40,954 bases of DNA. Source: Conidiobolus incongruus B7586 (taxonomy: Eukaryota). The notes beneath the pieces were generated by a model. That model had not been told where the DNA came from and did not search any database. It was given only the letters and a program-made list of their open reading frames with translations. Every line of letters begins with the position of its first letter. The stretch's first letter is position 1. Made by a program: the position numbers and the translations under genes. The DNA lies in assembly GCA_000697335.1 (NCBI GenBank), contig JNEM01013676.1:1-40954 (forward strand), read 5' to 3'. Shown here one piece after another: positions 1-40,954 of the stretch.

Positions 1-380
1 TCCTTTAACAAGAAATTTAAATTAACTCTAGGAGTATATTTAAGAAGCTTAAAATAATATTAATTTTGTTTAATATAAGAAGTTAATTAACTTTATACCT
101 TATAAACTTAAAAAGGTTAAAAAACAAAAGTTAGATATACTAGATATTAATTTTTCTATTATTATTAAAACCTACAAATTTATAACTTATTTTAAATATA
201 CTTTTAGTTTTAATATATCAATTAATAATTAATTAAATTTAACTCTATATATTATATTATAAATAAAAAATATATATTAAATAAATAGTTTAATATAAGT
301 TTATTTAAATTAAAGTTAATTAAGATATTAATAGAAATATTTATATTTTTAATTTTATGTCTCATTTTTATAAGTTAGTG
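1..380 (+). mobile_element. 3' end and right TIR of a hypermutated Tc1-like transposon (same family as 38700-40272), truncated by the window edge
   Basis: The transposase C-terminus reads NLN*L*EYI*EA*NNINFV*YKKLINFIPYKLKKV...YTRY* (stop 148-150), which reverts to a Tc1 'LWE.IQEAW..I...CKKLIDSMP...GGYT.Y*' end. The TIR runs 167-380 with inner repeat aaaacctacaaatttataacttat and ends ...gttagtg followed by TA (381-382). Confidence 0.85.
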
Positions 381-8273: not shown

Positions 8274-9375
8274 TTAATACATTTGAGGTTTGGGGTTACT
8301 GTTTCCACCTTGGTTGCCTTGGTTACCTCCTCCATAGCCTCCTTGACTACCTTGTGAGCTATAACCTTGGTTGCCACCACCATAGCCACCTTGGTTACCA
8401 CCTTGGGAGCTGTAACCTTGGTTGCCACCACCATAACCTCCTTGATTACCTCCTCCGTAGCCTCCTTGACCACCTTGTGAGTTATATCCTTGATTGGCAC
8501 CACCATAACCTCCTTGGTTACCACCTTGGGAGCTGTAACCTTGGTTGCCACCACCATAACCTCCTTGACCGCCTTGTGAGCTGTAACCTTGGTTACCACC
8601 GCCATAACCTCCCTGGCCACCTTGATTGCTACCACCATAACCTCCTTGACCGCCTTGGTTGCCACCACCGTAACCACCTTGATTACCTCCTCCGTAGCCT
8701 CCTTGACCACCTTGTGAGTTATATCCTTGGTTCCCACCACCATAACCTCCTTGATTACCTCCTCCGTAGCTTCCTTGACCACCTTGGCTACCTTGAGAGC
8801 CATATCCTTGATTACTGCCTCCGTAGCTGCTTTGGTTACCACTTCCATAACTACCTTGGCCTCCTTGGGAGCCGTAATTGCCACCACCTCCACCTATAAT
8901 AGAAATAAAAATGAATATGAAAAACAAATATTAAATTCGAAGTTGAATAAAGCTAAAAAATAATTGAAGAGAGAATTAGGACTAAAAATTTACCTTGTTG
9001 ACCAAGTTGGCCACTCATCATTTGAGCAGCTTGAGCCATAAGACCAGCAGTTTGAGCGTTATTACCGCCACCAGCAAGTTTGGCAACTTCAGCCATAGCT
9101 AATCCAATAAGGGCGTTGTTATTTTTGCCACCACCGCTGCCGCCACTACCACCACCTCCCATCATGCCCATAACGCTGTTGACGGCCATACTGACAAGTG
9201 GGTTGGAGGAGCCGCCGCTGCCTCCTCCCATGCCACCACTGCTGCTGCTACCACCACCTCCACCAGATAACATCTTGAAGGCGTCACTGAGGAGACCACG
9301 ATCGACACCAGCTTCATGAGCGTGTTTCTTAGCTTCATCCTGATCGAAAGAATCTGTATAACTTCTATTAGCCAT
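8274..9375 (-). CDS. 333-aa Gly/Gln/Asn/Tyr-rich prion-like repeat protein with a short helical N-terminal domain (resembles fungal 'beta-flanking' proteins)
   Basis: Two exons, 9375-8994 and 8893-8274, joined by a 100-nt GT-AG intron (8993-8894) that keeps frame (…GQQ G|GGGGNY…). The N-terminus has DQDEAKKHAHEAG and LIGLAMAEVAKL; the C-terminus is (GGYGGGNQ / GYxSQGG[QN]Q?)n. Confidence 0.9.
8310..8880 (-). repeat. Coding tandem repeat: 24-bp units (GGYGGGNQ, GYxSQGGQ) in higher-order blocks
   Basis: Recurrent ccaccaccataacctccttg and ccttgtgag(c/t)t(g/a)ta units on the + strand. Confidence 0.9.
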
Positions 9376-10141
9376 TCTAATTATTAATTTAATTGACTTA
9401 GACTAATGATTTAATACAAAAATACTTAATGCAAGTGAATACTTTTGTATTTATATAATTTCAGTGGATGGTGTGATGTCATACCAATCAGAAATTTCAC
9501 ATTGGTTTCAGTTGATTAATTCATAGTTTAATTTAATCAAATTATTAATTATTTGAAAATGATTTAATAGAATACAAGTGAAAATAATGGATTTGCATAG
9601 TTTGAACCAATTTTAAACAATATCTAGATTCCATATATTTTTAAATTGAATAATTTTATTTATGATCTAGCCTTTTTTATACTGATAAAACTTTCAAAAA
9701 AAATATTCGAAATTTAGTAATTTTATTTAGTTGAATTGAATGATTTGATATAGTTGATTAGTTTAATTTTATATTTCAAAATAATGGATAATCAAAGAGT
9801 ATTGAAACAAAGTTTAATCAATTGATTTTGAGGTTTGAAATTTTGCCTACATTTTACCAACATAGCAATTATTAATTAATTGATTAACCTTGTAAATATT
9901 GATTAAATTTTATACCATAATTTATTGACATTCATTAGATTATTTTATTTAATGATCTGATAGATGTAGTATATGTCTATGATATATTAATTCTGTTAAT
10001 TGTAGAGTATTTAAAATATTTAAAATGAATTTATTAATTAAATAACTTTGATACAAAAAATAGATTAAAATATTATTTAAAATGATTCTGTGAATTATAA
10101 TAAATCTTTAGTCTAAAGTAAATATTAAACTGAATTACTTG

Positions 10142-16004: not shown

Positions 16005-17468
16005 ATGTTGGAAAATTTAACAGTATTGGAAGTTCAAGTACTTGAAGATAGTATTAATTTTTTAATTCAATTTGATGATAAAGAAGTAATATTAGTTTTT
16101 TTTTTCATTTTAATTATATTAATTTAGTTTAACTTAGAATAATATCAAAACCATATATCGAAGTTACGATCAAACAATATGGTTATATAAGCAATTAGAA
16201 GCCGAACCTAATTTAATAATACCTTTTTGTTTTGGTCAAATTGATAAAAATTTATTACAGGACGAGAATGAAAATTATTTGGAGTTGATGCGATTTAAAG
16301 TCGAAAGGTTTTTAAAATTGGTTGTCAGTTTGGAGTATTTGGAGGATAATAGGTATATAGAAGAGTTTTTTGATGATAAAATGGTAACATTTTTTCTATT
16401 ATTATTTAATAATATTATAATTATGAATATTTGTTTACTTAGAATGAAATGAATAAAATAAAACCTGAATGTGTAAATCATATTAACGGTGGCTTTTTAA
16501 ATAATTTGGTCGGTTTGATACCCCAATTGAAATCTAGTCCCGTAAATGCCTATGTTAATTTACCTCAGATTCCTGAATATTGTAAAGAAATTGACCTTGG
16601 TCAAATTGAAAGTAGCCAAGCTTATATCACAAATCTTGACGAAAATTACAATTTAATGACGGATAATCTGCAGTCCTTACTCGATACAACGGAACAAATG
16701 GAGAAAGGAATAACGAAACTGGGGACATTATGTTTATCCACGTTACACGGGCAGTATCGACTAGGGAAAGCGAATACCACGCCTCCAGAATTACATAGAT
16801 TTCACCATTTTTTAGAGAAATTCTCCATGCTGATAGATGATTTAAATGCTATTCAGAAAGGAGATTTGAGTTATTTAAAGTATCAACTCATATTAATTCA
16901 GTATAAATTAAGCCTAAAGTCCATCAAAAAAACAATAATTAATAACCAGTCTAAATTTGTAGAACTCAACCATTTAATCAAAGATTGTCACAAGAAACAG
17001 GATAAAATTTTGAGTATTATGGATGATCAATCTTTGGAACCTACACCCGAATTGATCGAAGCAAGAAGGCAGGAGGAAGAGTCAAACCAAGCCATTTTAA
17101 AGGCAAAGGAATTGGTCAAAGAAACCAATGAAAAGCTTGTGAAAGATTTAAATACATTTGAACTTTTAAAATCGAAGGATCTTCAGAATTCTATTAGATC
17201 TCTAGCCAAAAGTCAGCTTGAGACTCATAAACTCAAATTGGAGAAATTAAAGCAATTTTTCAGTATTCCTCAAACTCCCCAACCAAAGCCCAGTTTTCAT
17301 ATCTCCCCTGTGATTGACTCAGAAACCCCTTCGTTTCAATCTTATCCCTCTTCAATCGTTTCTATCCGATCTTACGAATCTTTGGGTATTGGTACATCAT
17401 CCTCAGCCACAAAACCTACCAACTCAATAGCCAATGGCATTCCCTTTTATCCTCTCGACATTGATTAA
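16005..17468 (+). CDS. Divergent PX-BAR sorting-nexin-like protein (3 exons)
   Basis: Exons 16005-16085, 16138-16383 and 16443-17468 join in phase 0. A PX-like IYRSYDQTIWLYKQL…IP…RFKVERFLKLV…IEEFF segment is followed by a long coiled coil with a BAR-like end (DLNTFELLKSKDLQNSIRSLAKSQLETHK) and an S/P-rich tail. Confidence 0.8.
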
Positions 17469-20442: not shown

Positions 20443-20564
20443 ATAACATATGGTTTTATTATCTAATTATTAATTAAATATGATTAAATGACTGGTTTTT
20501 AAAAATTATAAATTCTTAACTCCTAACTCTTGTTCTTGAATTCCTTTTCAATAAATAGGATCTA

Positions 20565-20822
20565 ATGAATTTATTCACTTGTAAAAGATGCTCTCAAAAA
20601 TATTCACCACTATTAAATCAATCTGATAGCTGTAAATATCATCCCTTAACTTTTGTATGTAGACCTCATCCCGTTGACCATTACGCCTACGAGCTAAATG
20701 ACCAATTGATGACCGAGTTAAAATCTTGGAATTGTGAATATTGGGACTGCTGTGGCAAAGAGAGCAAAGATGCTACAGGGTGTAAATCATCTTATCATAT
20801 TAGCTATGATGATAACGAATAA
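20565..20822 (+). CDS. 85-aa Cys/His-rich zinc-binding protein (CHORD/Btk-like ligand pattern), intronless
   Basis: Pattern CxxC…N…C.YHP..FVCR.H…YEL…WDCCG……GC….HISYDD; GC is elevated relative to the flanks. Confidence 0.85.
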   Translation: MNLFTCKRCSQKYSPLLNQSDSCKYHPLTFVCRPHPVDHYAYELNDQLMTELKSWNCEYWDCCGKESKDATGCKSSYHISYDDNE

Positions 20823-22586: not shown

Positions 22587-24969
22587 CTATTGCATATCAT
22601 ATTCGTTTCCTAAACCTGAATCATCCATATGGGACAATTCGTTGGAAGTGGTGGGTAAAGTTTCGACCAATCCCGAGAGTTGTTGATATAATCTAGCTGT
22701 AGTGTTATGGAATTCCAGTTCATTTTCAATGAAAGTTTGATAGATATTGGAAGTAAGTAGTTGTCTTCTGTGGAAAAATTCCAACTCTTTCAAAATTGAA
22801 AACTTTTTAAATTGACTTTTCTTAACAAGATTAGCTAAATTTTTCTCATTCTATAAATTCATTCATTAATATTATGGAGTATGAAATGTAAATAAATATT
22901 ACGCTTTGAAGTTCTCGATTTAATTGTTCGATTTCTGAAGGATCACCTCCTTTACTCTGTAATAAATCTATTTTAGCAGTCATATCATCGATCGTTTTTT
23001 GCAATTGTTCAATTTGATTTTGATTAGTTGTTTGGTCATATCGATTAAGTAGGTTCTGGATATAATATTAAGTTAATTGCATGCAATAAATGTAGTATTT
23101 ATATTCATTACTCTAAGTGAGTTAGCCATAGTCAAATGTCTCTTAAAACTCTCTAAAGTAGCTGTGTCTTTATCCGAACTCTAACGTTTTAAAAAGTTAA
23201 TAGTGTGATATGAGCGAGAAATATTAATATTACCTTTTGAATATTGGCTGCTGATATCCTTTCCAAATAAGTAGCAATGTCTTGATATTGAGTAACAAGT
23301 TGGGGGCATGGTTTACAATCTTCGTTATGGCACCAGTTTTCAAATTGGGAAAGTGTTCTAATAATTGTTATTAGCAAACTGAAAATGGTATTGAAAATTA
23401 ATATTAAATTACTCTAAGCACTGACTGTACATGAGTAAATCTTTACCAGCTCCTGACAACAAAGTTAATATATATGAAGATGATAAATTGGTTAAATATC
23501 AACAAACCTATTTGCCTACTTGCCAATCTTTGGAAGGTATCGCAAATCCTTTCGTATTGACTAATGGCTTGGTTAATATTCTCTTTGGCTTTGTGAATAC
23601 GATCTTGTAAATCGGAGGGAATCATATCGATCATTTCGCTTGTAAAACTTGAAAATTCAACTTCTTCAAATGTGTGAACTTTGTTCTCTCTACGGTATTG
23701 GGCCATTTCCTAATCGGATGTTAAAAAATTTAATAGTGATTTAATTGTCAATTTACCATTGGTTCGGTGAGGAAAGCATTTACTAAGCTGTCTTCTTTGA
23801 GTATAGGATGAATGGCAAGTAAATTGATGTATCTGCTTAAACCCATCAGACGATCCTTCTGAAATTGACTATTTCCAGCAAATTTCTTAGGTGGAAGCTC
23901 AGGGATCATACGGAATGGATAGCGCTTATTGAGAACTTCATCTAGCCAGTAAAAATCGCTGTATCTGCGAAGAACTGTACATTCACGAACCTGAAATTGA
24001 CATGATTTAATTTTTTGATTTAGTCAGTATGTATATTCAAGAATTAACTACCTTAGATACAAGTTGATAGTTAACATATTTAAAAAAGGTGCCACCCATC
24101 TCAGGAGCAACTGTGACCTCAATTTCGTCGTCTTCAACAGTAGGTAAAGGCAAGTCAAGGGTACGAGTTAAAGTATTGCCTTTCTTGCTTATGGAATTAA
24201 AAGTACTTGGTGCCTTTTTAGAGCGCATAGAGTTGAAAGTGGAATTACGCCAGGGATCGGAAGGGAAAGAATCACCTGTCCCAGCAGCTGCTGGTTTTGG
24301 AAAATTAAGTCCCGTAAAATCTATCTGATCCAAACCTGCAAGGTGAGGTTCAGGTAAATCTAAAAAAATGAATATTGAGTTGAATGAAGATATGAATAGA
24401 TTTCAATTCGAATTACCATGTCTTCGATTAAATAAATTTTCCAAACTGACGACTATAAAAAACAGAGTTAATTATATATAGTCACTATAAAATAAATTAA
24501 TTAATACCCATATTCTTTTGGGCCAAGGCAATTAAACCCAAAATAACAAAAAATTCAGTTTTGGAAATGTGGGTTTGGTTCATACCTAATACTGAATATA
24601 AAATCTAAAATATAAATTTTAATTAAATATGATGCCGTAAATTATTAAAGTTACCTGATCGGAAACATTGACAGGCAAACCACTAGCTCTAATAATATGA
24701 GATAAAGAAGCAACAGTAATCTGGTCTTGAGCATTAGGTTTAGTCATTTGAAAATAGGTCTCAAAAATGGGTGGCACTTTGGTATCATCTAAATATTTTA
24801 TCAATTATCATTAATTATTTATAATTTTATAAAAATTACTTAAAATAGTTGCTGGGTGAATTTCTGTACTATTAGCTTCGGCATACCAAGGATTATTAGC
24901 CTCTAATAATTCACTCGAGTGGCTAGGACCTCCAAAGTTAACACTCTCGTTAAATAATGGTGAGTTCAT
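22587..24969 (-). CDS. MVP1: Sorting nexin Mvp1/SNX8 (EH-like N-terminus, PX, BAR), multi-exon
   Basis: PX domain: [13 protein letters not shown]…[31 protein letters not shown]…[10 protein letters not shown]…[17 protein letters not shown]. The N-terminus has an EH-like SGLP…[12 protein letters not shown] segment and the C-terminus is coiled coil. Confidence 0.9.
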
Positions 24970-26932: not shown

Positions 26933-27772
26933 TTATATACTTTTGGATAAATTAAGTTGATTTAAATAATCCATTAATACAGCTCCAGCTGATGCTACAT
27001 TTAAACTTTCCAATTTGGGGTCTATAGGAATACCCAGTCCATACTCTGAAGATACCTTTTCAGAGATGCCATGATGTTCTGAACCCATTACCAATGCAAC
27101 TTTGGTCAAATTAAAATCTTTTTTCAAAATATCACCAGTCTTTCTCTTAAACAATACAGGTTTACAATCTTTTATAGGAGGTGGTTTTTCAGCAACAACC
27201 AACTTAAATCCACAATCCCTAACCATCGCCATCAATTCATCATACTCCACAAATGACCAATTAAATTTCAAAACATGTGCCAAACTGCTTTCAATCACTC
27301 TAAAATTCAGCGGATCACAAGATCCCCTCACAATGAAGATATGATCCCAATGCATTAAAGTCGCCGTGGATATTAATAGTCCCATGTTCTTAGGATCGCT
27401 AATACGGTCTAATACTAGCCATTTCGTTTCGTGATTTTTGTTTTGATGGGTTATTTGTGAAGGAAGTTGTAAATGTGTCAATACAGAATGAAATTCCAAA
27501 GGTAGAGATTTTAATAAATTATCAGAATCCAAAAGTATGTCACATTTCAAATATTGGTTATTTAAGTTGAATTGATTTATATCGACATTATTAGGAACTA
27601 TTAATGATTTTAAAGGCAGCTGATTTTTATAATATTTTAAAGGTACTACCAATTCCCTAACCTCATATCTGTAATTCCTGTCAGTAATCAATTTTTTTAT
27701 TGTTGTTGCTAAGTTTTTAGATATTTTATTCATTTTTTGTGAATTTAATTTTTTTGTGATTGGGTTAATCAT
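26933..27772 (-). CDS. SpoU/TrmH-family RNA 2'-O-methyltransferase-like protein, intronless (true start may be ATG 27733)
   Basis: SPOUT motifs LVLDRISDPKNMG, VMGSEHHGIS and IP….ESLNVASAGAVL. Confidence 0.9.
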   Translation of the reverse strand: MINPITKKLNSQKMNKISKNLATTIKKLITDRNYRYEVRELVVPLKYYKNQLPLKSLIVPNNVDINQFNLNNQYLKCDILLDSDNLLKSLPLEFHSVLTHLQLPSQITHQNKNHETKWLVLDRISDPKNMGLLISTATLMHWDHIFIVRGSCDPLNFRVIESSLAHVLKFNWSFVEYDELMAMVRDCGFKLVVAEKPPPIKDCKPVLFKRKTGDILKKDFNLTKVALVMGSEHHGISEKVSSEYGLGIPIDPKLESLNVASAGAVLMDYLNQLNLSKSI

Positions 27773-27829
27773 TGTTGGGTTGCTGACTATTATTTATAAT
27801 ATTCTTTCCACACGATAAATAGCTGAAGC

Positions 27830-27838
27830 TTATGGGAT
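27830..27838 (-). promoter_or_regulatory. ATCCCATAA upstream element (SpoU gene)
   Basis: Perfect 9-mer in sense orientation, about 58 bp from ATG 27772 or about 97 bp from the second in-frame ATG at 27733. Confidence 0.72.
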
Positions 27839-28430
27839 TAGGATTATTTATGAGATTAGTCTAGAATTTGATTTAAATTATAAAATTATCAAATAATAGA
27901 ATATGGCAAAAAAGCTAACAAAGTAATAATATGATAAAATTTTCTGGTTATTTATCATCTGATATATTATCACTACTCTGATCTTTATTAATCAGTCAGA
28001 AATTAATAAATAATATAATTTTACTTGTTTATGAGTCGAAAATCACTAGACAAAGCAACTTAATAATAATAAGCTTATTGAAATCTCAATAATAAATTGT
28101 CAATCATATGATCTATTTAATATTATAAAAAATGGATAAATAAGCTTAAATTGAATATCATAAGTTTAAAATATATTGATGATAATGAATAGATTGGAAA
28201 TGGATCCTACAAATTCCCACAACATTAAATCAAAGAATGATCATTGAAAGTTACCAATCAATTAATGAAGTATAAATAGTCAAAATCCAATTCAACTCTT
28301 AAATATTTATAAAATTTAAATCAGATATAAGATTGTAAACTCATATATAATATAATATAATATAATATATATAAACATATATACAATAATAAAAGATATA
28401 TACCTAATATAAATATAAATAATATTTATA

Positions 28431-31400
28431 ATGATGGAAAATTTCATTCATCAATATATTATCGCTTTAGATAATGGCCTAATTGATAAAGTCTTAGAAA
28501 TTATTGATTTAAGTTTACAAGGTTTATTTTAATTTCCATTCAAATCTGTAATTTTACTAATATCAGTTTTTAGAACTTACTTCAGGGAAAGAAACCTTAC
28601 TGAGTGTAGTTCAAAAATTAGAACAGTTTCTGACTTCTGAAGACCCAAGTATGAGAGCCAAAGGTAAGTTTTTCAATTGGTAGATCTCAATAATTGACTC
28701 ATAATAACTTGGGGTTTTCAGGGCTTGGTTTCCTCACAGAGATTCTCTCCAAATATCCTACGGACGCTTTGACGAAACAAGAAGGTAGCTATCCTTGTAT
28801 GACAACATATCAAAAATATTAATGTCTATTAGTGACTCAATTTACTACCTTTCTAATTTCGCGTTTGAGTGATCAGTACAGTATTAAGGAAGTCTTACAG
28901 GGGATTGAGGGCTTGACAAGGTCGCCAAAGTTCTTGGGATACGAGTGCAATCAAGTATTGGGAGAATTGCTCTCCAAAGTGTCGGTGCAGTCCTTGAGTC
29001 AGCCTTTGAGGTTTACCATTTTGAAATTGGTGGGTCAATTGATTGATCAGCATTCTGAAGGTAGGCATCCATTATATGTAAAATAATGAAAATTTATTAA
29101 TGTGATGCTAGTGATTATCACGATGAAAACTCAATTCCTCAACGGATTTATTAGTAGCATCGATGGCGAGAAAGATCCCAGAAATTTGGAGCTAGTATTT
29201 CAATTGGTTTATAAAGTGGCTCAAATTTGTGATATTGAGCCGGTATCAGAGGTAACTAAATATTATATATTTTACTGTTAGCCCATTAATTTTATATAGG
29301 ATTTATTTGATACCGTGTTCTGCTACTTCCCAATTACTTTTAAATCACCTAAGGACGATCCTTTCGGTATTTCACCCGAGGATTTGAAAAATCGCTTAAA
29401 GTAATATTCAATTTACCAAAATAATCGCTTTGATTAAGCTTAATTTATAGACAATGTATTGGTGCATCTCCACTCTTTGCTCCATACGCAATCCCATCGC
29501 TATCTGAAAAATTAAGTTCTAATTCAGTAACTGCCAAGGTAAATCAATTAATACTAATACTTAAACTTATTATTAATAAATCAATTAATAGAAAGATACA
29601 TTGAACGTCCTTGTCGATGTTATTGACGTTTACAGACAAGAAGACTTCTTAAATCAATTTGACGAATTGATTGATAATATTAAAGAAGAGGTATTATCAC
29701 TATCTAACCAATATAAAATACGATATATTTATATTTAAATAGGTCTATCATCCCATGGATGACGAAATCCAACTAATTGCATTAAATGTTCTCAAAAAAT
29801 TCTTCGCCAAAATTCAGCCCCAAACCGGGTCGGATTCCTTCAACGACGTACTTTGGAAACAGATTAACAGTCTCGTTACTGAAGCAGTCTCAAAATATGA
29901 CGAACCTACCAACAATGAAAGTGCTATCAAACCCGCTGGAAAGTTACTCTCTCAATTGTGTGGCGCTAGCGTTTTGTGTAGTTGTTTGATTTTGGATAAA
30001 GCTTTAGTCAATTTACTTGACGCTTTCGATCAAGTGCATCACGTACAATTGAAGCGTGATATTCTCGATATTGTAGTCAATCTCTTAACGGAATGTCGAT
30101 TAATTTTCAAATCTGAGAGCTCTGGATCTGATTTTGGTAATTTCAAAATCATTTGTTGACTTTCTATAATATATTTAAATTTTTGATTTTATAGATCCTC
30201 TCCTTCCAAATGAATTAGTCACACAACAACCTCGACTCTCGGCTATCTTTGATCAGCATTTCAGCCAGAAGAACGAATTATTAGGTCTCAGGAAAATTTC
30301 AGCTAACGGTTTCGTCGAATTGATTTTAACTGAACAAATTATGGATACTACAGAAGTATTTTGATTTCCATAGGTATTTCATGTGTATACTAATTTTATT
30401 TTAGAGAAATTTTTGCCTCCATACTTTGACTAACGCATTGTTGAATGAGCAGGATCAAGATTTGAAGTAATTTAAATTCCATTACTAATTACATTTCCAA
30501 CTAACTTGACTTTTAGACAACATTTAATTATGATTTTCGAAAAATTAATCGATTCTGTTCCTAATTTAATCAGTGAGATTTGTTTCCCTTCAATTATCAA
30601 TCATAATAACAGTAACTTGGTTCAATTTATTTTAATTAATGAAATAATTAATCAATTTTTAGAACTTGTTAGCATTATCCTTGCAAACAATATCGATCCT
30701 GCTCAATCCAGCCAATTGAAGGAAGTTATTACGTTTGCCACTTCGTTTGGCTCTAATGTTATTACAGCTCATTGGATTTTGGAAAGTATTTTGAGTCTTA
30801 TTGTCAATACTTTGAAAGGTAATTTATGCTATATATACAATATACTTCATCAATTGTTAATATAATCAATCAGAATCATACACATATACATCCATCTCAA
30901 TCGTCACATCCTTAATCCAATCCATCCAATCCATCCTTGAAAACCTATCTACCAAAGCCCAAAATAACGACACTTTCCAACTCTTCAACTCCATCTTCCT
31001 CCAATTGTGGAGTATTTCTTATGAATTGTGCGCCTCACCATCTTTCCTCAACTACTATGGCCAAAACATCATTAGCATTCAAAACCTTTTTCAGTCTGCT
31101 TACAGAGCGTTTATTTTGATTATTCGCACCCTCGATATATCCCAGCAGCAGGTGCTTCTCAACTGCGTGCATCGCCTCTTCTTCGATAATGATACTGGGG
31201 CTTTGAGGGGACTGGATAAAAATTTAGATTTGAATCAGTTTGTAACGCCTTTCAACGTAATTATAACAATTGAATTAGTTTTTGAATTTGTATTAATTGG
31301 CTATTAGGGATCTAATCAATTTGAAAATTTAATTTATCTTTACGCTGCAACAATTTTAGCAACCAAAGCTAAAGTAATATTGAAATAGATAGTTATTGAC

Positions 31401-32730
31401 ATATCACTAAATGGATTCTTTTTAGATTGAATTACCTTTCGATCCCACCAAACAAGTCCGCATATTAATCGATTACACTTTACAAAACTTACAAAAACCA
31501 ATTATCGAACCTTTATTATTAATTGTGGGATCTTTAGTTAACAAATTTTTCAACGGTAATTCAAATTCCATAGAGTATTATATATAGAGATTTAATGACC
31601 TTGATAGACAACCAATGTAAAGAAATTGCCGAGAATTACGCTCTCACGGATTTGAAGTACACAGCTTTCGATTCTACCCAGAGGGATTTTAGGAGGATCG
31701 GAACTATGAAATTAATTTCATGGGTAATTAAAATCCCATTTAATTTTAAATTTTTATTAATGGTTTTTAGATTACTAAAGCTTTGGTTCTCAGAGGTCAC
31801 AAGTCCGGATTCGATCTTCTCAATACTCTCATGGTCTCGTTAGAAGATACTGTCATCGGACCTCAAGCTGCCCAAGGTCTCCATATTGTTCTGGATGATG
31901 ACAGTTGGGCCTTGTCCAAGAAGAATTTCCACAATGTTAAGGTATTTAATTAAATTATGATAAATTGATACAATAAATTAATAGATATTATAGTTTTTGT
32001 TTGGTCAAAGAGTGTTCACCTATTGTCTCACTCCCCTCATTCAAGGGTTTACTGATGGGAAGACAGAAGGTAAGTAATGGTCCCAGTTTTTCTACATTTA
32101 ACTAATTTCTTTTAAGCTATGAAACATCACCATCTCTTAGCAATTTCTGCACTACTCAAAAATGCTCCTAAATCAGCTTTAGTGTCCGAAGGCTCTAATG
32201 TAAATTTCATAATTCATATAACAATTTCATCTTATTAACTTTATGAATTTAGTTACTTCCACTAATTATTGCATCTTTATACAATTCAGATCCTCAATTA
32301 CAGCAATCTTCGTTAGATACACTACTAGTAATTATTGAAACTTCACCATCATTGGTTGCTGATAAGGATGAGAGTCTCATTGATCAATTGTTGACACTCA
32401 GTCAATTTAAGATGACTAAAAATATGGTAATTTATAATTAACACTATACTATACTAATAATACATTATTAATCTATTGAATTTAGCGAGTCAGAATGAGT
32501 GCACTTCGATGCCTGAACCAAATCAGTTTGTCCTTCAACAAGGAAAATTTAATCAAGCACCAAGATATCGTCCTCAAACGTCTCAAGCCATGCCTCGACG
32601 ATCCCAAGCGCTTGGTCAGAAAATTGGTGGTTGACAGTCGTAATAGATGGTAAATATTCTAGTTTATCACTTTTTGATTTTATTAATTGATAATTTTAGG
32701 TATATGAGTTTAGGCACGAAGGGAGTTTAG
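28431..32730 (+). CDS. MMS19: MMS19/Met18 HEAT-repeat cytosolic Fe-S assembly targeting factor, many exons
   Basis: Motifs IDGEKDPRNLELVF, DLFDTVFCYFPITFKSPKDDPFGISPEDLK, ASPLFAPYAIP and C-terminal LDDPKRLVRK…R.RW; stop TAG at 32728-32730. Not every intron phase was verified. Confidence 0.93.
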
Positions 32731-32816
32731 CTGCTATTTAATGTCAAATAATAGCTCTTTATTTAACCAAAATAAAACAATTTTCATTTTAATTTAAACA
32801 TTATAGAAGATTTATT

Positions 32817-33642
<826 letters not shown>

Positions 33643-33737
33643 TTTATTATTTTGAGTATTTTGATTAATTGTTTGAAATTTAAATTGTTAGGGACTTGAA
33701 TTTTGAAATATAAAGAGAAAAATAATAGGATTTGGAA

Positions 33738-33746
33738 TTATGGGAT
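33738..33746 (-). promoter_or_regulatory. ATCCCATAA upstream element (SIW14-like gene)
   Basis: Perfect 9-mer in sense orientation about 96 bp upstream of ATG 33642. Confidence 0.75.
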
Positions 33747-34942
33747 AATTCCATTTCCTTTATTAACTTGGATTGAATATTAATTTAATAAAAAAATTAG
33801 ATAACTATTAAAATAATTAATATTATATAATATACCCTTTGTTCAAAAGTTACCGCAGGTGTTTCTTATAATTTTATATAAAATAATATTAAATTATTTA
33901 AATTTCACATATTTGAATTTCAAATTTATTATGTTCAAAATAAAAAATAAGTTTATAAATATATATCTTACATTATTGTAGTTATCTTGATTAAATCAAA
34001 TATTATATAATGAACAATAATTTACACAATAGATATTATAATAGATCGAGAATACGATAGTTATAAAATAATCAATTTAAATAACCAAATTATTGTAAAG
34101 TGTTCAATGTTTTATTTAATGTCAGTTTTCATTCGAAAAAACTACATTGAAAAAAAACTAGCAGTATTTTTTGAACACATGGTATTTACTATATGTTTAA
34201 GTATTTTAATTATTTAGTATTATATTCATTTTTATTAAATTTGTTAATCAAAATATATTTGATTTCAAAATAACTGATTATATATATATATATATAATAA
34301 AATAGATATAAATATATTTAAAAATAACTATTGAATGGTATAAATTATGTTAATAATAGGATATGGACTTAGTCTGTTGATTTCATAATCATATATGAAT
34401 ATCATAGCTTCAATTGGTTAATATAAATCTTAAAAATTGATAATTTATAATATAAAATCAATTTTTATACTCTTAATAATTATATAAGAGAGATTTAAAT
34501 TTTATTAAACAATAAAAAAATTTTATTTTTAGGTAATTAATATTAAATCTTAAAATTGATTTTTATTAAAACATAAAAAATTTAACTGAAATAATATTTT
34601 AATTGATATGAATGATATTCATTAAATAATTAATACATATAATATTAATTAAATTTTAATTATCTTGTAATAATTTTATTTATTTTATTGTTTATAATTT
34701 TTTTTTTCAAATAAAAAATCTTCAAATTAGTAAAAATCATTTTAAAAAAATTGTATTAATTTTCAATACAACTCAATTATTTAAAATCAAATTAATTAAT
34801 ATATTGTTTAGACTGTTATATAAATATATTTTAATAATCGATAAAATAGTAAATAAATTAATTTTAATCTGTTTTTTGGCTATTAATTATTTTGAATATC
34901 GTAATTAAACTTTATATCATAGTTAGAGATAAATAAAGATAA

Positions 34943-35500
34943 TGTCAAGATTGTCGACTTGGCAGCCCGTCGGACCAATGCAGGTCGCGGAGAACACGTT
35001 ACCTAAACAAGTTGACAAGGTTAATCGGAAACTGTGTTCACCTTGGGAATTGAATTATATACTCAATGAGGATAATTGCATTGATGAGTCTATATGTCCC
35101 GATAAAAGAGCATAGGCCATCAAAATAAGAAAGAAGTTCAGATAGTAGAAAGAAAATCCGATGCTGAGCTCACCAACTATGGTTCTACCTTAAGACCAAT
35201 AAAAATATCATTGTTAAAAACTAATTTATCTTGAGTTAATTTATCGATTCTAATTGCATTATTTAGTCGAAATGAATTCAGGTCAGCTAATCACTGTCGA
35301 TCCACGTATAGTAGCATATTCACCCAATTTGCGTACCATGCTCGCTATTCAGGCAGTCACGCATGCGCCTCAGCTCGTCCGGCTTGCCTTGGACGTACCT
35401 ATGCATGCCTGGAATCAGTGATCTGACTACCATGATTCTGGCCAGGATTGTCGAGCATGTGAGCGTTAGATGAATATTTGAACTTTTATTAATATTTGCA
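34943..35500. other. GC/CpG-rich non-coding island; possible solo LTR or structured RNA
   Basis: Abrupt start at TGTCAAG (34943) and a candidate end …TTGCA (35500), with flanks gataa/gatta matching at 4 of 5 bases. No ORF of 60 codons or more; several hairpins. Confidence 0.35.
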
Positions 35501-36300
35501 GATTAACTATAAGATAAAATGATCGATGACTCTGATTTAATCATATTAAAACAATTTATAGATTACATTAACTAAACTTTATTGTACTATTAATTATATG
35601 TGATTTCAAAAACTTAGACTTGAAATCACTTGAATTTGCATTAGACAATTCTAATCATATTACTCTTATTAACTTTAAACAAATGAATATAAAGAAAGTA
35701 TTACAAATAATCCTGTACAATAAAAGGATAATCCTATAAAATATAAAAATTCAAATTTAAACGGCATATTTTTTTTATAAAATTCATAATATTAATTCGA
35801 CTAAATACTATTTAATTTATTATTTTTTTTTAAAAAAAATCTCCAATAAATTTTAAATTCAATTACATGTTATAAAAGACCAAATCTTTGATTGGATCCA
35901 GAAATTTGGGAATTTTTTTGGGGGGGAGGGATCATTAGACTTAATTTCAAAATAAATTATATTTCAAAAACAATCACACCTTCAAAATAAAGTCGTGTTT
36001 TTATAATAATCAATGATTGGGTACTGCTAACTTGTTTATTGAGGGGATGAAATTCAAATTACTCTAAATTCATTATAAAAAAGTAAACCATGTTACTTGA
36101 TTGGTGCTTGGATTTCCCATAAATTAGTATTCAGATGATTTTTTTAAATATGGTTGAATCATAGTTGAAAGAAGAGAAGGATCAGAGTGAGTTTGGATAA
36201 GTGTTTACTTAATTTGGATTAGATAATTACTATTTAAATCTTATTATCAACTGATATTATTTTATTTATTACTTTTAACTTTCTTATTCCAAATTTCGAA

Positions 36301-37536
36301 ATGAAGATTTTGTTCATTACAGATGCTTATGAACCTCAAGTCAACGGTGTAGTAACAACGATAAAAAACCTCAAAAGAGTTTTAGAAGACCTCGGTCACA
36401 CTATTGAAATTATGGAACCTTCTCAATTCTTAGGTATTCACGTTTTCGTCTACCCCGAAATCAAATGGTGTTTGGATTTATGGAGAGTAGGCAATATGAT
36501 CCGCAATTCTGAACCGGACTGTGTGCATATCTTCACAGAAGGGATGCTAGGGTTAGCAGCTAGGATTTATTGCGAATGGGCAGAACCCGAAATCCCCTTT
36601 ACAACGAGTTATCATACCCGATTCCCCGAATTTTTGGAAATGTACTTTTATATTCCTGCCAAGTATACATACAGGGGGTTGAGATGGTTTCATTCCAAGG
36701 CCCAGTCAACACTTGTGCCAACACCGAGTATGATGGATTATATGAAAGAAGTTGTTCCAGATGCGAATTGGAAATTGTGGACGAGAGGTGTCAATCCTAA
36801 ATTGTTTTATCCCGAAATGCGTCTAAAAGCTCCTGAGTTGGTACCTGAGTTGGTTAATCTACCTCGTCCTATTATTCTATGTGTGTCGAGAGTGTCTCTA
36901 GAAAAAGGATTAGATGATTTCTGTAAATTAAAAGTAAATGGTACCAAAGTTGTAGTGGGAGATGGACCTTCCAAGAAATCCCTTGAGGCAAAATATCCAG
37001 ATGTGATCTTCACAGGTGTGATGACTGGAAGTAAACTTGCAGCTGCCTACGCATTCGCAGATTGCTTCGTTTTTCCATCTAGAGTAGATACATTTGGCAA
37101 TGTTATGATTGAATCAATGGCATGCGGTACCCCAATTGCTGGCTACAAAGTAACAGGTCCCAAAGATGTCCTGATCGAAGGAGTCTCAGGTTATATGCTA
37201 CCCGGCGGCCTTGAAGAAAGTGTAGAAGCATGCCTCAAGCTCGATCGCGAACTCGTACATCAAGCAAGTCAAGACTGGACCATTGAAGCCTGTGTCAACA
37301 TCTTTCTCAAGAATCTATACCGCCTACCTCCCGACTTTTGGCTCACCATCCCCAACCACAACCTACAGCCCACAAGTCGAAGCTTATCCAAGCGCTTCTT
37401 CAAACGCCTTATTTACATTTTAGAAATTTTCTTCCTAGCGTTTTACACCCAGTACAACGGTAAAAATATCTTTATTTTAGGATTTATTTCACTATTTATC
37501 GTTTTGTTAAATATGTTGCTGTGGACTGCTTTTTAA
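36301..37536 (+). CDS. GT4 (GT-B retaining) glycosyltransferase of bacterial type with a C-terminal hydrophobic anchor; probable glycolipid synthase
   Basis: Intronless 411-aa ORF with TDAYEPQVNGVV, YPEI, TEG.LG, FTTSYHTRFPE, WTRGV, RVSLEKGL, VVGDGP and FVFPSRVDTFGNVMIESMACGTP. Two hydrophobic segments lie at the C-terminus. Confidence 0.93.
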   Translation: MKILFITDAYEPQVNGVVTTIKNLKRVLEDLGHTIEIMEPSQFLGIHVFVYPEIKWCLDLWRVGNMIRNSEPDCVHIFTEGMLGLAARIYCEWAEPEIPFTTSYHTRFPEFLEMYFYIPAKYTYRGLRWFHSKAQSTLVPTPSMMDYMKEVVPDANWKLWTRGVNPKLFYPEMRLKAPELVPELVNLPRPIILCVSRVSLEKGLDDFCKLKVNGTKVVVGDGPSKKSLEAKYPDVIFTGVMTGSKLAAAYAFADCFVFPSRVDTFGNVMIESMACGTPIAGYKVTGPKDVLIEGVSGYMLPGGLEESVEACLKLDRELVHQASQDWTIEACVNIFLKNLYRLPPDFWLTIPNHNLQPTSRSLSKRFFKRLIYILEIFFLAFYTQYNGKNIFILGFISLFIVLLNMLLWTAF

Positions 37537-38285
37537 ATAATTTTTTGAATTTTAAATTGTTTTATATATCATAATAGCTAGTAAATAAATTTTATAATGA
37601 TATAGTTTCTTAATATCAAAATAATCAATTAATTTTCAAATATTATTTATTCAAATTTTTTTCACCTATTATTTACAATGAGAATTGATGTTGAAAATTT
37701 AAGTAGTTGATTTTGTACTGAAAATTAGCTCAAATATTATAATTTACTCAAATTGATATTTAATTTAAAGAATGATTAATTTATATATATATATATAATT
37801 AATATTAATATGTAGTAATATTTTTATAAAACTTTAAATTTTAATTGATGAAAATAACAGTAAATTCAATGAATCATAAAATGGGATATTAAATGATTAT
37901 TTGATAGATTTAAAATACATGATATACCAAATATTTAAATTAAGTATATATTTAATTCTATATCCTATAGATATTTGTTTATATTTACAAATATAATTTG
38001 ATCATTTTTATTTCATAATTGGGATTGAATTCTAAAACATCAGAATTAATTTTTTATTAACATACAAAGATTTAGTAATCTTATATTTAATTATATTAAA
38101 TTATTTATATTTTTAAGAAAATTTTAAGATAAGTTATACCTCAAAATATTACTTTTAACTAATACACCTGATAAGTTTGAAACATATATTACTATTCTAT
38201 ATTTTTAATAATGGGAATTTTTTGTGATTTAAAATAAATAAATATTTTAATATATAATATATAAAAATAAATATATAATATAAAT

Positions 38286-40894
38286 TTAATAGTTTCTTTT
38301 ATTATTAATAACTTTTGGTTATACTTTTAACAAAGATTTAACACTTAAAAAATAATTCTTTTTATTAAAAACTAAAATTTAATGTTTTATAAACCAATTA
38401 AATTTTCCTGTAGAAATTTTCTTTCCTTTAAACTAGTTTTTTAATTGCTTAAAGCAATTATAATCACATAAATTATAATCTAAAGAATATACTAGATATA
38501 GTATTTTTTCTAGTTATTTTTAATTAGAAAGTTTTTTACAGCTTTAAATTTATATATTTTATAATTATTATGTAAAATAATAAGTTTTCTTAAATTATAT
38601 TAAAAATACTAATTAAAAATATTTTTATTTAAAAAAACAATATAAAGTTTATCATTAATTGATTTTCCTTTAAACATTAAATAAGAATAGTATATATTAT
38701 ATTAACCTGTAAAAGTAAGTTATAAAATCAAAAACACTTATATTTTTACTAATAACTTAATTAATATTTAATGAAATAAACCTAAATTAAATAATTAAAA
38801 TCTATTATATTTATTAGTTATATATATTATTAAATGGTGATATTTAGTTATTAATTAGTTAAAATATAAACCTTTAAATTTTACCTAAGGTAAGTTATAA
38901 ATTTATAGGTTTTTGGTGATAAAAAAAAATTAAAACTTAGTGTATCTATCTTTAACTTTTCTAACTTCTTTAAGTTTATAGGGTATAGAATCAATTAACT
39001 TCTTACACTAAAAAAAGTTAATCTTGTTTTATACTTCTTAAATATATTTTTAAAGTTAATTTAAATTTTTTACTAGAGGGAAAGCTTTAATAACTTTTTT
39101 TAACTAATCCTAAAGGTGTTTAATTAGATTAATGTTAAAAAATTAAAGAAACTATTTTATAACTATTATCTTATTATTTTTAAGTTATTTAGTAATAAAA
39201 GCTATAGTATAACAAGAGGTATTATCTTACTAGAAAATAACATTAGATTTGTTTAACTTATATTATTTAATGGTTTTTTTCAATTTATTGTTTAGAATAC
39301 TTTAATATATTTTAGTATTAATTCCCTTATTAACTTTATAAAGATACTTTATATTTAAAAACAACATATATCCTTAAATAATAATTAACCTATTATTATA
39401 CTTTTAAGTAAAATTAACATAATAGTTATAAAATAATTCTATATCTTTTTTAAAGCATTTAGCTTTTTTATTAAATCTACTAAAGTATATTTTTATTTCA
39501 TTAGATTAAATAACCTTACTTTAATTATTTTTAGTTTAATATTAATAACAACATTTAAACTTTTATTTAACTTTATAATAGGATTTTTTTAATTAGGGGT
39601 ATTTTTTTTAAAGTGTAAGTGGTATCTATGCTAATATAAAATACATATAATAATATTAGTATTAACTAATATTTTTATATAGTTTTATAGTTTTTGTTAT
39701 ATTTTTACAATAGTATTATATTTACCTATATTAATTAACCTACAAATATATTTCTTATTATATTTTATTTATAATTCTAACACACTTAAGTTTAAATTTA
39801 AATGTTTTTTTATTGTTATTCTTAATAACTTTAACTATAGTAGATTAACTAACACTAGTAATTTTAATAATATCACAAGTTGATTAACCTTCTTTATAAA
39901 GTTAATTAATATATAAGTAGATTTTTTTAAAGAGGGATTTAGGTATAATAATACTAATAAAAAAAATTTAGTATATCTATAAAATATTATATAAAATAAT
40001 AGTAAAGAGAGAAAAAAGATATAGTTATATATTGTTAAATATATCCTTTTATTTTAAAAACCTGTAAATTTATAACTTACTTTAGTTAAATAATAAAGGT
40101 TAATATTTTTGCTAATAGTTTATTAAATATATTTAAATATATTTATTTATTATTAAATAATATACTTTAATTTTATATTATAGTTTTAAATAATCTAATA
40201 TATACAATTGTTTTAGTTATTAATTAAAATATATATATTTTTGATTTTATAACTTACTTTTATAGGTTAGTATATTATAATTTATTATAATAATAAATAT
40301 TTACTTATTAACAAAATATTTATTTAAAGGGATTTATAAAAAATGTTGATTTAATTTAATTTAACATTTTGATTTATGTTTTAATAAAAGATTATACATA
40401 AAGATTTAAGATTCATCAATTATAATTATTCACTATAAAAGTTTAAGCTTATAATAATATTTTAGTAAGTTTTATTTAACAATAATTATTTTACCTTTTT
40501 TTTAAACTTTAATTAAATTATAAGGTATTTATTTTATATTTTTATTTATTAATTTAAGTTTAAACTTTAATATATATATAATACTTGTAAAACTAATATT
40601 AAAGTACTTAAATAATTCTTTTACTAAAATAAAAAGGTGATTTTTAATATATTTTTTTATTTTATTAATAATTAAAAGAGTAATTATTAAAGTTAGTTTT
40701 TTAAATTTTAATAGGTTTTAAATAATTTCTCTTTTAGTTTTAAAGTAATTTATCTAATAATAAATTGTTAATTTAAATAATACTTTATTATTAAAAACTA
40801 CTTGTAAATTTTAAATAATTTTAAAAGGTTTATAGTTAAATTTTATTAATATTAAAATAAAAAACTTTTGATAATTATTATTTAATTTAAGTAT
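38286..40894 (-). mobile_element. Hypermutated mariner (DD34D) transposase, split by the Tc1 insertion at 38700-40272
   Basis: After reverting transitions: VFGDEALSKSTIY.W…PRSGRP (about 40800-40700), WVPHNL (taa ata cct tat aat tta, from 40531), RIIT.DESW (D at 40415-40417), LHDN (D at 38567-38569), HP.YSPDYNPCDY (D at 38463-38465) and LPKVW.KVIDN.GNY*. The two halves total about 1034 nt. TIRs were not located. Confidence 0.85.
38700..40272 (-). mobile_element. Complete hypermutated Tc1-like (DD34E) transposon, 1573 bp, with IR/DR-type TIRs
   Basis: TIRs at about 38700-38913 and 40057-40272 share inner and outer repeats (gtaagttataaa core); TA flanks at 38698-38699 and 40273-40274. The transposase relic 39946-38930 reverts to WT.DDWSKVIWSDETKI (D 39500-39502), IMIWGCM, VIFQQDNASCHT (D 39224-39226), WPPQSPDINPIEHLW (E 39119-39121, exactly 34 residues between) and LIDSMP…KGGYTKF*. 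Confidence 0.92.
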
Positions 40895-40954
40895 AATTAA
40901 ATTAAACAACCAATTTTAAAAAGTTAATTTTTTAATCAAAAAAACTAATATATA

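Follow-up and report, generated by a model that had tools for sequence, protein, structure and literature searches.

Strong, repeat-restricted C>T hypermutation of a Tc1 transposon in a probably non-Dikarya fungus

Whether fungi outside Dikarya destroy their repeats by a RIP-like mutation is contested, as index signals reported for such fungi (PMC11105155) stand against the verdict of a recent screen that the signature is confined to ascomycetes (PMC12543289). The window analysed here, a stretch of 40,954 nucleotides, carries near its right end a transposon with many stops in its reading frames, which the first-pass annotation had described as a full-length Tc1 element bearing RIP-like hypermutation in an apparently early-diverging fungus. 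The locus therefore raises the question of what the element is, what kind of mutation has struck it, how far this mutation reaches into the surrounding DNA and in which kind of host it acted.

A full-length Tc1 element with a dead transposase

The element runs on the minus strand from 38700 to 40272, exactly the interval first assigned to it, and lies between TA target-site copies at 38698..38699 on the left and 40273..40274 on the right, with the contigs of its family diverging at 38698. Its GC content is 14.6%, its C:G pairs are heavily mutated to T:A and CpG is absent. Like other Tc1 elements, it ends in inverted repeats and has duplicated its TA target. The ends measure about 215 bp each, the left (3') terminal repeat lying at 38700..38915 on the plus strand and the right (5') one at 40056..40272 on the minus strand, and inverted-repeat pairs join 38681-38765 with 40207-40291 and 38840-38914 with 40056-40130. 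When both ends are aligned, the outer and inner direct repeats match and differ almost only by transitions, the middle being poorly conserved. We take this layout to be that of the IR/DR elements (Sleeping Beauty/Minos type), which the element resembles in its ~215-bp ends with paired direct repeats, its TA target, its DD34E spacing and its transposase of about 340 aa; its nearest intact relatives among the matches listed are metagenomic transposases of 338 aa, whose identity to the dead frame reaches 36% at most.

The C-terminal half of the transposase (38930..39601, minus strand) keeps a single frame from 39601 to the stop at 38930, as had been claimed, and 34 residues separate D2 from E, which is the DD34E spacing. 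D2 is intact as GAT (39226), and the two other catalytic residues have been changed by G>A, D1 to AAT (39502) and E to AAA (39121). The earlier account of the catalytic half needs one amendment, in that the N-terminal half is present as well (39602..39945, minus strand), in another frame, the two halves being offset by one base through a single slip in the A-run around 39602-39609. Its confident alignment, obtained by tblastn, covers 39592-39765 (residues 62-118 of P0300 and 61-118 of P0296), and its start is placed by comparison with the 338-aa relatives. Save for this slip, one frameshift in about 340 codons, the gene is collinear with its intact relatives.

Searching with the C-terminal frame by phmmer, stops being read as X, returned 340 proteins at E<=0.001, the best of all being P0123, a Tc1 transposase of 338 aa (E 2.7e-30, 32% identity). 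Pfam recognises DDE_3 and HTH_Tnp_Tc3_2 in P0123, which gives the paired-HTH plus DDE homology, and recognised nothing in the dead frames of the element itself. Among the best 120 of 3486 matches no intact member of the element's own family was found, the highest identity to the dead frame being 36%, and the 72 metagenome loci that we collected are relatives of P0123 outside that family.

Direction, strands and sequence context of the changes

Both dead frames were aligned with 20 of the top 22 relatives, two partial ones being dropped, and columns in which at least 80% of the 20 relatives agree were taken as conserved (n=133), the ancestral bases thus being those implied by relatives that share only 24-36% identity with the dead frame. 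Fifty-three of these columns are unchanged, 71 call for C>T/G>A only, none for the reverse direction only, one for mixed transitions and 8 for a transversion. C>T/G>A alone suffices for 71 of the 80 altered conserved codons and the opposite direction for 0/80, compared with a mean of 16.0 (sd 3.4) and a maximum of 30 in 2000 codon shuffles, which bears out the transition excess claimed for both strands. The transversions from the relatives' residue required in 8/80 altered codons count against a simple picture.

Bases forced by the residue were scored in 122 of the 133 columns; the other 11, in the N-terminal part, align poorly and were excluded. Forced C has turned into T at 17 of 29 positions and forced G into A at 61 of 82 (G>T at 3), combining to 78/111 for C/G to T/A, while every forced A (59/59) and every forced T (48/48) was kept. 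A two-state ageing model with an equilibrium GC of 0.10-0.20 expects 9-20 changes from A/T to G/C where we observe none (P 1e-4 to 4e-10), and at a looser threshold of 60% only 3/168 A/T bases are changed (P 5e-4 to 3e-11). As 0 of 107 forced A/T bases changed, drift towards AT is rejected. Both strands were struck, with 25/43 cytosines changed on the coding and 61/79 on the template strand. The example changes that had been listed (TGG>TAG/TAA, CAG>TAG, ATG>ATA, CCA>CTA, CCT>TTT) do occur in the dead frames, among them Gln>TAG at 39232, Met>ATA at 38986, Pro>CTA at 39127 and Pro>TTT at 39151, 39139 and 39412. Trp has become TAA eight times and TAG twice, and the step from TGG to TAA, which takes two hits, would fit mutation in repeated rounds. 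The middle of the terminal repeats departs from this spectrum with mainly A/T transversions, 33 against 15 transitions between left and right, and 33 to 29 and 40 to 24 in the two comparisons with the copy at 1-380 described below; judging from the alignments, we read it as probably unconserved spacer or AT-rich misalignment.

As for context, most changes had been assigned to CpA/TpG and some to CpT/CpC. The lead of CpA stands, and the breadth had been understated, with CpG erased and 38/86 changes (44%) at CpT/CpC; the other scored changes fall on CpA (19), CpA-or-CpG (26) and CpG (3). By 3' neighbour, loss amounts to 19/22 at CpA, 26/27 at CpA-or-CpG, 3/4 at CpG (13/15 at the looser threshold), 9/14 at CpT, 18/34 at CpC and 11/21 at CpC-or-CpT. 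Cytosines before a purine were lost in 48/53 cases against 38/69 before a pyrimidine (p 1.8e-5), so that the ranking reads CpA ~ CpG > CpT >= CpC and the context is broader than in canonical RIP, as had been suspected. A RIP-type preference for CpA would fit the losses at CpA, yet CpG is equally lost and CpT/CpC are widely affected. On the 5' side there is a mild pyrimidine lean (62/81 vs 24/41 changed). These rates leave out 40 listed variant places (433 others exist besides), which over-represent sites that seldom mutate, 21 of 33 being followed by T. The 230 cytosines that survive in the element include none in CpG and 146 in CpT. Part of the CpC changes may have come second, once the neighbouring base had mutated. 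With definite changes beyond CpG (19 at CpA, 9 at CpT, 18 at CpC), decay of CpG-only methylation does not account for the scar, and together with the 0/107 A/T changes this upholds the earlier view that neither CpG-only deamination nor plain ageing explains it. A bisulfite or other sequencing artefact is out, since a single molecule bears C>T plus G>A and the genes are intact.

Mutated repeats, neighbouring genes and the transposon family

A second copy, truncated and belonging to the same or a sister Tc1 family, lies on the plus strand at 1..380, where it is cut by the window start; it comprises the transposase 3' end and a terminal repeat and is hypermutated too. Over 119 ungapped bases it agrees with the main copy at 96 and differs by 20 transitions and 3 transversions, and it retains the terminal TAGTG before TA that is mutated in the main copy. 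CpA+CpG make up 0.21 of cytosines in the element (p 7e-17) and 15% in this copy (p 1e-6), compared with 0.51 in non-coding host DNA of similar GC, in agreement with the claim that, within the window, the C>T change is targeted at repeats. In the element the composite RIP index stands at about +1.0, compared with -0.45 to -1.24 in intact relatives (12/12 examined, of 72 loci). Among 42 AT-rich windows of 500 bp before 37700 it is negative in 39, and the copy at 1-380 is the clear exception.

Two of three flanks are host-like, namely that of the copy at 1-380 and the first 175 bp to the right of the element. On the left flank (38250..38697), and there only, the RIP index climbs towards the element, and a partial shift of the CpR share (0.29, n 55, p 0.002) would reflect spreading into single-copy DNA or a further repeat remnant. 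The stretch at 40451..40954, with 10% GC and a CpR share of 0.19 vs 0.51 in the host (p 1e-5), gave no Pfam match in 6/6 frames and is probably another mutated repeat. Within the window the hypermutation is restricted to repeats, one flank being ambiguous. It is worth mentioning that the window ends on both sides in mutated repeat-like DNA.

The neighbouring genes are free of the C>T scar. An intronless GT4 glycosyltransferase gene at 36301-37536 (plus strand) has 40-46% GC compared with ~32% in neighbouring exons and retains CpG and CpA though it lies ~1.2 kb from the element; its best NCBIfam match, far under the cut-off, is alpha-monoglucosyldiacylglycerol synthase, and a transfer from bacteria is possible. 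At 8274-9402 (minus strand), a glycine-rich gene with internal tandem GGYGGGNQ-type repeats has 40-45% GC and an index near zero, its short internal repeats not being AT-eroded. A small Cys/His-rich protein encoded at 20559-20822 (plus strand) has its nearest ESM Atlas clusters, with BTK (13%) or CHORD (19%) motifs, at weak similarity. Two PX-BAR sorting-nexin genes (16138-17468 and 22587-24402) lie near genes for ALG1, RAD17, MMS19, a SpoU methylase and a Siw14-type phosphatase.

The wider family was followed in four DNA runs of one sample, possibly the source of the assembly, in which 85-90% of the words of 31000-40954 are present. Per run, 27,559-35,366 contigs aligned to 38690-40060, and places showing another letter at >=1% of depth were counted as variable. 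Transitions account for 420/466, 409/447, 409/451 and 415/457 variable places in the four runs (~91%). Of 208 C/G still standing in the main copy, 176-189 are T/A in other copies, and G:C>T:A transversions are seen at 7-9 places; conversely, 231-234 of 1163 A/T places in the main copy are G/C elsewhere in the family. The family thus varies in the way in which the main copy was mutated. This implies an original GC of ~32% and a loss of ~53% in the main copy, both rough figures from an incomplete count that misses saturated sites. Less mutated copies appear in a loose-end consensus, where a 30-base stretch after 39137 shows nine differences by eye, all C/G against T/A in the window. At 38698, 28-37 contigs per run (X1-X3) diverge with ~0.54 agreement and therefore point to many insertion sites. 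From the contig numbers and varied flanks we infer a very high copy number, summed contig depth being excluded as a measure of it. Contigs also join the internal positions 39073, 39285, 39728 and 39826 to the element's end (within 38690-40060), which suggests nested self-insertion, and many internally deleted forms occur among the run contigs. Import of a copy already RIP-mutated in an ascomycete is out, since dead copies cannot spread and the copies differ independently.

Host placement and explanation of the scar

In a search with the ALG1 exon, limited to proteins of 404-2000 aa, the best match was Dimargaris at 53%, followed by Anaeromyces, Coemansia and Basidiobolus. No ascomycete or basidiomycete is named among the best 120 of 2415 matches; about 60 of these 120 are, by eye, named non-Dikarya fungi, and animals outrank Dikarya. 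A two-exon tree (330 columns, 27 chosen matches) places the window beside Neoconidiobolus and Entomophthora (SH-aLRT 88, bootstrap 81), this being, like the one-exon quick tree with its weak placement beside Kickxellales (support 57), a tree of one gene with a long host branch and without Dikarya sequences. Identity to neocallimastigomycetes is only 45%, and the host is therefore not one of them. The SpoU gene gave 7 matches, the sole named eukaryote being Entomortierella (1/7), and ESM Atlas searches of the window proteins were uninformative on the host. The earlier suspicion of a host outside Dikarya is probably right: we are highly confident that the host is a non-Dikarya fungus, a zoopagomycete being likely, and lean towards Entomophthoromycotina within it.

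RIP in Neurospora crassa proceeds through a RID pathway and, as DIM-2-mediated RIP, through a DIM-5/DIM-2 pathway (10.1101/115501). The scar resembles it in being C>T/G>A only, apparently favouring CpA and targeting repeats, and its sharp edges on two of three flanks recall the confinement of the RID pathway; it differs in that CpG is fully erased, CpT/CpC are lost about half the time and the host likely stands outside Dikarya. RID/Masc1 has been found only in Dikarya, with a bacterial-like gene in Batrachochytrium as the one exception (PMC5751038). In Zymoseptoria tritici, a mitotic Dim2-dependent mutator likewise makes repeat-restricted C>T changes at CpA, through a DNMT1-like enzyme and with the sexual cycle dispensable, but >98% of its C>T falls on CpA and CpG is spared, whereas our element is hit in all contexts (PMC8016269). 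A methyltransferase-linked mutator of this mitotic kind would, by analogy, leave a similar scar. CpA signatures have been tied to RID, and those confined to CpG to enzymes like Masc2 (PMC4352252); DNMT1/Masc2-bearing basidiomycetes are alike in losing CpG from repeats via methylation and deamination but show CpG only, CpA signatures appearing in the survey concerned only with RID/Masc1 ascomycetes. Fungal enzymes of this kind are reviewed in PMC13297926.

Closest to the probable host, Stajich et al., who stated caveats, reported a RIP-index signal for 24.2% of the windows of Zoophthora radicans and low levels elsewhere in the Entomophthorales, and they proposed two-domain methyltransferases as candidates while stopping short of calling them RID homologues (PMC11105155). 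Our case is alike in the likely subphylum and in the proposal of RIP outside Dikarya; theirs is a dinucleotide index, whereas the changes in the element were read from aligned codons and from sister copies, which give their direction, strand and context. The kingdom-wide 2025 screen of Badet and Croll found the signature unique to ascomycetes and scored 8/8 Zoopagomycota as no_rip, including Conidiobolus coronatus, which counts against a RIP reading (PMC12543289). In the open-access literature, covered mostly by search entries, we found no case in which RIP-like CpA mutation had been demonstrated by alignment in a fungus outside Dikarya. RIP outside Dikarya has thus already been proposed, and what appears to be new here is alignment-level evidence on a disputed question.

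We consider it fairly probable that a repeat-directed cytosine methyltransferase coupled to deamination produced the scar, acting on both strands in repeated rounds in a probably non-Dikarya host. Passive decay, in which repeats densely methylated in all C contexts lose 5mC to spontaneous deamination over a long time, MIP-like silencing plus chemistry with no dedicated mutator, seems unlikely to us. It would fit the absence of CpG among the 230 surviving cytosines, the loss of about half of CpT/CpC with all four contexts hit and the variation of 176-189 of 208 surviving C/G in the family, and CpG-led decay is known in DNMT1/Masc2-bearing fungi (PMC4352252). CpA was, however, hit as hard as CpG. 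Moreover, 70% of forced C/G were lost against 0/107 A/T (95% upper bound ~2.8%) in a gene with one indel, and such a contrast, at least 25-fold, would be hard to reach by spontaneous chemistry. Neutral amelioration, the drift of a GC-richer transposon to an AT-rich host equilibrium, would account for an element as AT-rich as the host's non-coding DNA (10-20% GC), but it is largely refuted by the same 0/107 (P <= 1e-4), by the near absence of G:C>T:A transversions (7-9 places vs 176-189 transitions) and by host DNA of equal GC that retains the CpA missing from the element.

Ordinary RIP, saturating the element over many rounds in an AT-rich ascomycete or basidiomycete with RID/DIM-2, would explain the CpA preference, the two strands and the confinement to repeats, and the ALG1 evidence leaves it some room through a tree without Dikarya, a long host branch and the range of 404-2000 aa searched. 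We regard it as improbable given the best 120 of 2415 ALG1 matches, where no such fungus is named and animals rank above Dikarya, and the Entomortierella match of the SpoU gene. No more credible is an AID/APOBEC-like cytidine deaminase attacking transposon DNA in place of a methyltransferase: the pure C>T spectrum, the broad 3' context and the mild 5'-pyrimidine lean would suit it, but both strands are hit and the 3' purine is the stronger determinant. To our knowledge, cut-and-paste elements such as this one have no long single-stranded intermediate that it could attack.

With a repeat-directed methyltransferase, the Tc1 family would have expanded to many copies, which may then have been marked as repeats by homology or heterochromatin. 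An enzyme of the DNMT1 superfamily, probably not canonical RID, would modify cytosines in all contexts, and successive rounds would saturate CpA and CpG before eroding CpT/CpC, destroying the transposase including two catalytic residues as well as the terminal CA. The enzyme could act before meiosis or in vegetative growth. Such a scar would work like RIP, and it may belong to RIP proper, which responds to sequence homology as such, duplicated genes included, acts before meiosis and depends on RID/Masc1 or DIM-2. More tentatively, it could represent true homology-triggered RIP in a zoopagomycete without canonical RID, using another methyltransferase of CpA/CpG-led, all-context specificity, and repeat-killing mutation would then be older than Dikarya or have evolved twice.

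Heavy C>T mutation can hide whole transposons from Pfam, which in AT-rich genomes could bias k-mer screens as well as the annotation of repeats. The very large, collinear Tc1 family, whose copies have decayed to different degrees, makes direction, strand, context and burst structure directly measurable. If the host lies outside Dikarya, repeat-killing mutation (RIP) would reach into a group that a recent survey scored as RIP-free.
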